Source: Escherichia coli (GTDB lineage Bacteria > Pseudomonadota > Gammaproteobacteria > Enterobacterales > Enterobacteriaceae). Taken from it: a stretch of 64,000 nucleotides of DNA. The stretch lies in assembly GCF_048403405.1 (NCBI RefSeq), contig NZ_CP183129.1, one strand, 5' to 3'. Shown here in pieces: positions 46,650 to 47,760 of the stretch. The position numbers and the translations under genes were made by a program. Each line of letters starts with the position of its first letter. Position 1 is the first letter of the stretch. The notes beneath the pieces are model-generated. The model saw nothing but the letters and a program-made list of their open reading frames with translations. It was not told the DNA's origin and ran no database searches.

Positions 46650-47760
46650 TAATCAATCTGCCAACGAAGGAGATCGCTACGCGTAAAGCCCGTTTTACTG
46701 AGCATCAGATCATCGCTGTGATTAAGTCAGTTGAAGCCGGACGAACCGTTAAAAATGTCTGCCGGGAGGCCGGTATCTCTGAAGCCACCTACTACAACAG
46801 GAAGTCCAGATACGGCGGCATGGAAACTTCTGATATTAAAATCTTGAGGACGAAAACCGCCGTCTCAAACAGATGTTTGCTGACCTGAGTCTGGAGAGCC
46901 GAGCGCTGAAAGACGTTATCGAAAAAAAGCTTTAAAACCAGCCTTTAAGCGTGAGCTGGTCACTCATCTGATAACGACATTCGGACTCAGTATCAGTCAG
47001 GCCTGCCGGAGTCTGAACCTGAGCATAACGTTTACCGTTACCGCCCGGATACCACGCGTGATGAACCCGTTATTGCCGCCCTGTAGGCTGCGGCTGAGCG
47101 ATACCCACGATACGGCTTTCCGAAGCTTTTCCAGATTCTGCGACGGCAAGGATACTCGTGGAATCACAAAAGGCTCCACCGTATTTACTGTCTGCTGAAG
47201 CTGAATTTTCGCCGTAAGGGCCAGCAACGGCTGCCGGTACGCATCCCTCACCACTGGCTACGCCAGAAGCGCTGAACCAGTGATGGTCTGTCGATTTCAT
47301 GCATGATGCGCTGGCCTGTGGCCGTCATTTTCGCACGTTCAATGTTATTGATGACTTTAATCGTGAGGCGTTATCGATTGAAATCGATCTGAATCTGCCA
47401 TCTCTGCGGGTGGTCCGTGTACTTGACAGGATCGCGGCAAACCGCGCTTATCCGGTCATGCTGCGCATGGATAATGGTCCGGAATTTATCTCTCTGGCGC
47501 TGGCTGAATGGGCAGAGATACACGCAGTAAAACTGGAGTTCATCCAGCCGGGTAAGCCGACGCAGAACGCTTTCATTGAGCGTTTTAACAGGATATACCG
47601 TACAGAAATACTCGATTTTTATCTGTTCAGAACGCTGAATGAAGTACGGGAAATTACGGAGAAATGGTAATCAGAATATAACTGTGAACGCCCGCATGAA
47701 TCACTGAACAATATGACACCGGAGGAATACCGACTTCACAATTATTTGGCCGGGATCTCA
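46650..47760 (+). mobile_element. Degenerate IS3-family insertion sequence remnant (5'-truncated, transposase with stops/frameshifts)
   Basis: Translated fragments match IS3-family OrfA (…RFTEHQIIAVIKSVEAGRTVKNVCREAGISEATYYN…RRLKQMFADLSLESRALKDVIEKKL) and the OrfB rve core (…DDFNREALSIEIDLNLP…QPGKPTQNAFIERFNR…ERPHESLNNMTPEEY), interrupted by several stops; the only intact piece is ORF 47299..47670. Confidence 0.7.

Follow-up and report, generated by a model that had tools for sequence, protein, structure and literature searches.

Evidence for a decayed but full-length IS3-family element at an island-block junction beside a type 1 BREX cluster in Escherichia coli

The window analyzed here, a stretch of 64,000 nucleotides from Escherichia coli (contig NZ_CP183129.1), contains what is very probably a decayed but full-length copy of an IS3-family insertion sequence (IS) of the IS407-group type, IS1400-like, which is dead, passively inherited, and located at the junction of two island blocks. 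Comparisons with other copies and with related genomes establish the completeness of this element, its lesions, its ends, its unrelated flanks, and its distribution. The element, an ordinary IS pseudogene already marked as such in RefSeq, is not a new phenomenon. Together with two tiny gene fragments on its right side, it appears to document the replacement of an mrr/type I restriction cassette by a BREX cassette in a leuX-type island. It is thus a tidy example of IS-associated cargo swapping in defense islands, one that matters little beyond correct annotation.

The limits of the element were obtained from an alignment of the window copy with five other copies, after which the ends of 13 other copies were compared. 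The element starts at 46600 (TGTAAATA…) and ends at 47794 (…TATTTACA). Homology opens at a common TG (TGTAAG or TGTAAA) in every copy and stops at the common CA of the right tip (TATTTACA) in all but two copies, the right tips of which diverge. BLAST alignments with full-length copies at unrelated loci also match the window from 46599/46600 to 47794/47795. Terminal inverted repeats of the IS3-family type, 5'-TG...CA-3', are present in the window copy (Table 1). Their terminal 8 nt are identical, and their internal 22-nt arms (46620 to 46641 and 47754 to 47775) are 82% complementary. Intact relatives are 1206 to 1207 bp long, and the copies in the end comparison ranged from 1198 to 1207 bp. The window copy measures 1195 bp rather than 1207 bp because it has lost 10, 1, and 1 bases, 12 in all. 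The sequence-only reading had described OrfA- and OrfB-like fragments with multiple stops at this place, and such fragments, bearing stops and frameshifts, are indeed found there, but its coordinates, 46650 to 47760, miss both ends of the element.

Table 1. Features of the element and its immediate surroundings (window coordinates)
Feature	Position	Strand	Details
GIY-YIG (T5orf172/MUG113) nuclease gene, split	45888..46539	+	ORFs of 97 aa (45888-46181) and 116 aa (46189-46539)
Mrr-type restriction endonuclease gene, tail	46570..46599	-	Last 9 codons (PKLDMDYCE) plus stop; remainder of gene missing
Decayed IS3-family element, full-length	46600..47794	+	1195 bp; alignment with 13 other copies, BLAST limits, RefSeq pseudo-CDS
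Left inverted repeat (IRL)	46600..46641	+	Begins TGTAAATA; private substitutions at 46605 (G>A) and 46610 (C>A)
orfA remnant (helix-turn-helix)	46679..46935	+	HTH_Tnp_1, 59.9 bits; original stop TAA at 46933-46935
-1 frameshift heptamer A AAA AAG, retained	46923..46929	+	6- to 7-bp hairpin 7 nt downstream
orfB remnant (DDE/rve)	46930..47778	+	rve, 63.4 bits; rve_3, 55.2 bits
sRNA family isrN (RF01396), full-length match	46934..47075	-	Rfam, 136.9 bits; model positions 1-143
Right inverted repeat (IRR)	47754..47794	+	Ends TATTTACA
ECs1377-family gene, 48-bp internal fragment	47795..47842	+	84% nucleotide identity to L020; tblastn E = 1.3e-5
678-aa hypothetical gene, frameshifted internal fragment	47843..47958	+	Residues about 368-411; 85% nucleotide identity to L018; tblastn E = 3e-7
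brxL, last gene of type 1 BREX cluster	48092..50167	-	Convergent with the IS; RefSeq annotation

The assignment to the IS3 family made by the sequence-only reading was confirmed. Fragments of the window copy match the Pfam models HTH_Tnp_1, rve, and rve_3, and RefSeq labels positions 46673 to 47778 as "IS3 family transposase; frameshifted; internal stop." The window copy is too broken for a scan as one protein. An intact relative is the ETEC1730 plasmid copy (L003), which has 92% DNA identity to the window copy and in which orfB is in frame -1 with respect to orfA (frame 0). Its 370-aa OrfAB scored 295.9 bits against the NCBIfam model NF033516 (IS3 family), the cutoff of which is 160 bits. The nearest copies (L002, L013, and L014) are 96% identical to the window copy, and the copy adjacent to clbA in the pks island (L005) is 90% identical. 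Perfect 4-bp target duplications surround three of the relative copies that were examined (GTTT at L010, GGTG at L012, and ATAC at L014). Intact OrfAB proteins of 370 aa are common across Enterobacterales. In PGAP, UniRef, and nr, the close homologues are all named only "IS3 family transposase," and NCBIfam offers only the generic family model for an IS name. The Rfam model IS1222_FSE did not match the window element; it matched only a different IS fragment adjoining the intact ETEC1730 copy. That fragment contains the IS1222 frameshift element (RF00383) at full length (117.1 bits), at L003 positions 2684 to 2801 on the plus strand. Two IS407-group-type elements are therefore nested at that plasmid locus.

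The interior of the window copy consists of two consecutive open reading frame remnants, orfA with a helix-turn-helix and orfB with the DDE/rve region, and it carries seven disabling lesions. In orfA, the start codon has changed from ATG to ACG (46679 to 46681) and 10 bp have been deleted after 46840. In orfB, there are 1-bp deletions at about 47029/30 and 47242/43 and three stops (TAG at 47084 to 47086, TGA at 47281 to 47283, and TAA at 47668 to 47670). A substitution in orfA has also replaced W with R at 46799. Altogether, 18 substitutions are private to the window copy, being absent from the 13 other copies, and two of these are the IRL substitutions listed in Table 1. The DD(35)E residues can be recognized in both the L003 OrfAB and the window remnant (WSVDFM, RMDNGPEF, 35 residues, and the E of FIERFN, with the spacing counted by hand). 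The frameshift heptamer stands in the orfA-frame context GAA AAA AAG CTT TAA (46921 to 46935), and the hairpin that follows it is not significant (z-score of -0.53).

The copy on plasmid pLR-06-1 has the same length and stops as the window copy and differs from it at three nucleotides, at two of which it has the ancestral base. All of the disabling lesions are common to this plasmid copy, and therefore the lesions predate the split between the chromosomal and plasmid copies. The two ancestral bases indicate that decay continued after that split. The conclusion that the element is dead, already drawn from its letters in the sequence-only reading, is thus well founded, with the seven disabling lesions found in chromosomal and plasmid copies alike.

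The length of the slippery run differs between copies (alignment columns 367 to 374), with six A's in L004, L002, and L006 and seven in L003, L005, and the window. Six A's place orfB in the +1 and not the -1 phase, and RefSeq still calls one such copy, L004 (CREC-591), a "programmed frameshift." Homopolymer errors, loss of activity, and reliance on transcriptional slippage are possible explanations for the copies with six A's.

A full-length match to the sRNA family isrN (gathering score of 44 bits) runs in the antisense direction across the orfA stop and the beginning of orfB. All 13 other IS copies have isrN at the same position (123.7 to 157.6 bits), and for this reason isrN appears to be an antisense component built into the IS lineage; its presence inside this element was previously unreported. 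The hairpin 7 nt beyond the frameshift site and the 3' hairpin of isrN are complements of each other. The IsrN of Salmonella Typhimurium, a 143-nt sRNA, is found in stationary phase, is induced in macrophages, and overlaps the 3' end of the transposase gene STM2765 (PMC2330248). Overexpression of IsrN in trans raises the level of STM2765 mRNA, and an expressed, Hfq-associated isrN transcript is known only for Salmonella (PMC2330248).

One possibility that would add to the main explanation is that the dead IS persists because its isrN is still expressed and useful, either modulating related transposase mRNAs in trans or having been co-opted by the host. The full-length match of 136.9 bits, the detection and macrophage induction of the Salmonella RNA together with its action in trans on STM2765 mRNA (PMC2330248), and the 99.3 to 100% conservation of the locus in 27 records all speak for it, but recent common descent explains the conservation, and other details of the window isrN make the possibility unlikely. 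Its two private lesions (G>T at 47026 and a 1-nt deletion at about 47029) break consensus pairs, and the predicted structure has four noncanonical pairs. Its score is about 19 bits below that of the closest relatives, L002 and L013 (155.5 bits), though still within the 123.7- to 157.6-bit range of the 13 other copies; this suggests decay like that of the remainder of the element. Furthermore, the predicted isrN start is preceded, at a distance of 9 nt, by the TAG mutation at 47084, and a promoter scan found no promoter-like site upstream. Divergence at third codon positions is only slightly lower in the isrN region than elsewhere (0.18 versus 0.24, n = 48), a difference too weak to claim constraint, and the thermodynamic z-scores are unconvincing both in the window (-1.9) and in an intact copy (-0.6). 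The window isrN would thus appear to be decaying along with the element that carries it, and the probability of continued expression is small. A broader proposal, that isrN is a built-in antisense RNA of the whole IS1400-like lineage rather than a Salmonella island gene and that dead copies persist as trans-acting sRNA genes, strikes us as quite unlikely in its entirety. If it were true, an sRNA gene within a dead IS, acting on transposase mRNAs or host targets, would sit beside the BREX system.

The surroundings of the dead element bear on how it came to lie where it does. On its left, the minus strand encodes the end of Mrr; the intact Mrr of strain PSJ-16 ends in PKLDMDYFE followed by its stop. 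Both L017 and PSJ-16 have the mrr gene at this place. Because positions 46570 to 46599 encode the Mrr C terminus, the IS lies inside mrr, nine codons from its stop. Relatives without the IS (L017 and four other complete genomes) match the left block (37475 to 46599) at 98.1% identity. Their homology with the window stops exactly at 46599, after which comes a convergent mrr-type gene and, beyond it, type I restriction remnants, an integrase fragment, and tRNA-Leu.

The sequence-only reading considered that the IS might have truncated the 3' end of a five-gene operon upstream. That operon proves to have four genes; what appeared to be its last two open reading frames is a single GIY-YIG nuclease pseudogene with a 2-bp deletion of its own, in a C-run at about 46160. 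The intact homologue in L017 (strain Z1323HEC0477, 8437 to 9090) is 217 aa long. The 116-aa open reading frame, which had no Pfam matches, corresponds to the C-terminal half of a nuclease of the GIY-YIG type that is about 200 aa long. Because its C terminus matches those of full-length homologues, the IS did not truncate the operon. The gene is complete at this end and stops 60 bp before the IS, and it was mrr that was cut instead.

On the right, according to the RefSeq annotation, a type 1 BREX cluster extends on the minus strand from brxL to brxA, and the IS lies between it and the small gene cluster of the plus strand. Between the IS and brxL is a 300-bp mosaic, with pieces of an ECs1377-family gene and of a gene for a 678-aa hypothetical protein. 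The ECs1377-family alignment tiles exactly to the IS end and includes the GGG found there, which is native to that gene. The brxL 3' flank begins at about 47939. A 61-aa open reading frame at 47769 to 47954 is a chimera that starts inside the right end of the IS and reads through both gene pieces; Pfam models found no matches in it.

The gene for the 678-aa protein adjoins a brxL remnant in about 450 other E. coli genomes. Many E. coli without BREX, L018 (5201 to 5443) among them, retain beside this gene an 81%-identical remnant of the brxL 3' end, near the nanS/HNH region. The arrangement suggests that an ancestral BREX locus was lost at the nanS/HNH-region site in many E. coli. Inside the BREX-1 cluster of the window, between pglX and pglZ, are two extra genes, for an AAA-family ATPase (about 373 aa) and a 189-aa hypothetical protein (about 52775 to 54459 on the minus strand; L001 26216 to 27900). 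These two genes may be an embedded second defense module.

The relatives without the IS run past 46599 into mrr and not into the right flank of the window, a result that upholds the earlier suggestion that the element marks a recombination scar between two cargo blocks. A breakpoint that coincides with the IS end to the base would be the expected product of an IS-mediated rearrangement, and the flank comparisons support this interpretation. They also make the scar more specific: a BREX cassette occupies the place that the mrr/type I cassette has in relatives. For the rearrangement to have come first and the insertion later would be a large coincidence.

The sequence-only reading also proposed a check for target-site duplications. 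GGG lies directly outside both IS ends; this is probably not a true duplication, as the two flanks derive from unrelated sequences and the GGG on either side belongs to the flank in which it lies. Target duplications of 3 bp are made by some IS3-family members, and GGG at both ends could accordingly be taken to mean that the element transposed into contiguous DNA with a 3-bp duplication and decayed in place, with no IS-associated rearrangement. We consider this simple insertion improbable. The chance of such a match at both ends is 1 in 64, a smaller coincidence than the one described above, and the right-hand GGG was supplied by the ECs1377-family gene's own sequence. Elements of this type make 4-bp duplications, but the flanking 4-bp sequences differ (TGGG on the left and GGGC on the right). 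A simple insertion is also at odds with the unrelated flanks and with the end of the left homology exactly at 46599, after which relatives continue into mrr. Nor was an empty site found: no record among 20,395 E. coli records and 72,556 plasmids (PLSDB) covered at least 80% of the flanks joined with one GGG, and an exact 22-mer over the predicted empty junction was absent from metagenome and genome collections.

An IS-associated rearrangement followed by decay remains the preferred explanation, and the distribution of the dead copy is informative about what came afterward. The decayed copy with both of its junctions was found in 27 complete E. coli records (20 chromosomes and 7 plasmids), with 99.3 to 100% identity across the IS plus flanks, and positions 46560 to 47860 of the window are 100% identical in 8 complete genomes. 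Two further plasmids have only the left junction. The next best full-length copy, 95.3% identical, is at another locus. On the plasmids, IS903B cuts the left flank about 450 bp upstream. Plasmid pLR-06-1 (L007) carries the same module, comprising the GIY-YIG tail, the dead IS, BREX, and the integrase, at 19600 to 38279. The tyrosine integrase adjacent to BREX is intact on plasmids and frameshifted on the chromosome (L007 versus L001). The shared lesions and the plasmid module indicate that the module moved as a unit after the death of the IS. At least seven large resistance plasmids carry the module, with IS903B as its left boundary.

The immobility that the sequence-only reading attributed to the element agrees with these data. 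There is no sign of movement since decay, the variant occurring in one context only across the 27 records, a distribution that appears to fit immobility. Intact relatives may nevertheless be able to mobilize the decayed copy in trans.

Two further readings of the element itself can be set aside. The sequence-only reading regarded the left end as truncated, and the mutated orfA start (ACG) can make the left part appear missing; a 5'-truncated fragment without a left end is, however, hardly credible, because the 79 bp upstream of orfA, IRL included, can be aligned with every other copy, the element has both of its inverted repeats, and homology opens at 46600 at the same TG as in intact elements. 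That the stops and frameshifts are assembly or sequencing errors in a transposase that is really intact has a practically negligible probability: single-base deletions, which account for two of the lesions, are a frequent type of error, but a 10-bp deletion, a changed start codon, and three stops that arose by substitution are also among the lesions, and the same sequence is present in 27 independent complete assemblies, 8 of them at 100% identity.

Another earlier suggestion, that the element might supply an outward promoter, was not borne out. A promoter scan returned 7 sites, versus 3.7 +/- 2.0 expected, and none faced outward at either IS end. The promoter-like site at 46626 to 46653 is likely the native orfA promoter. 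Inspection of the TTTACA at the right IS tip revealed no usable -10 in the flank. Any outward transcript would be antisense to the neighboring genes, because the GIY-YIG gene on the left is on the plus strand and brxL on the right is on the minus strand.

We infer the order of events, the mechanism of rearrangement, and the loss of mobility as follows. While active, the element would have encoded OrfA, a helix-turn-helix protein, and a -1 ribosomal frameshift at A AAA AAG would have yielded the DDE transposase OrfAB. Transposition would have followed a copy-out/paste-in route and generated 4-bp target duplications. Insertion would have taken place near the 3' end of mrr or into an ECs1377-like gene. 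A rearrangement defined by an IS end would then have fused the left block to the BREX block, either through recombination between two copies or through an IS-mediated adjacent deletion. No intermediate was found for either mechanism, neither an intact IS in mrr with its duplication nor a second copy beside an ECs1377-like gene. Following the rearrangement, the element probably decayed by point mutations and small deletions, and the module of GIY-YIG tail, IS, BREX, and integrase would have spread among E. coli chromosomes and onto plasmids.

Among known systems, IS1400 of Yersinia enterocolitica (X94452; IS407 group) is the closest point of comparison, with the likeness judged by description. 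It shares the length of about 1.2 kb, the TG...CA ends, the two open reading frames, and the DDE transposase, and relatives of the window copy make 4-bp target duplications. The ISfinder description of IS1400 quoted in PMC10425158 gives the IS3 family, the IS407 group, a 4-bp duplication, a length of 1.1 to 1.4 kb, and TG ends, and the pks-island element beside clbA has been called IS1400 (PMC11707995). The window copy differs in being dead, and the best Y. enterocolitica protein has only 83% amino acid identity to the E. coli OrfAB. For the latter reason, the lineage in E. coli probably represents an IS1400-like element of its own. "IS1400-like" is the safest label, and it rests on the literature for the pks-island copy.

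IS1222 of Pantoea and Enterobacter is also an IS3-family element of the same size class, and its transposase is made by -1 frameshifting (PMC5009743). IS1222 shifts at G CGA AAG, whereas the window lineage has A AAA AAG. Salmonella IsrN (RF01396), with its 143 nt, lies antisense to a transposase gene of the IS3 type at the 3' end of that gene, and the window match has an equivalent position. IS911, IS2, IS3, and IS150 resemble the lineage in producing OrfA and OrfAB by programmed -1 frameshifting and in having DD(35)E. As in the IS911-type paradigm, joined ends of the element would be expected to create a strong promoter from TTTACA at the right tip, a spacing of 16 to 17 nt, and CATAAT in the IRL. 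These four elements differ in belonging to other groups of the IS3 family, which mostly make 3- or 5-bp duplications.
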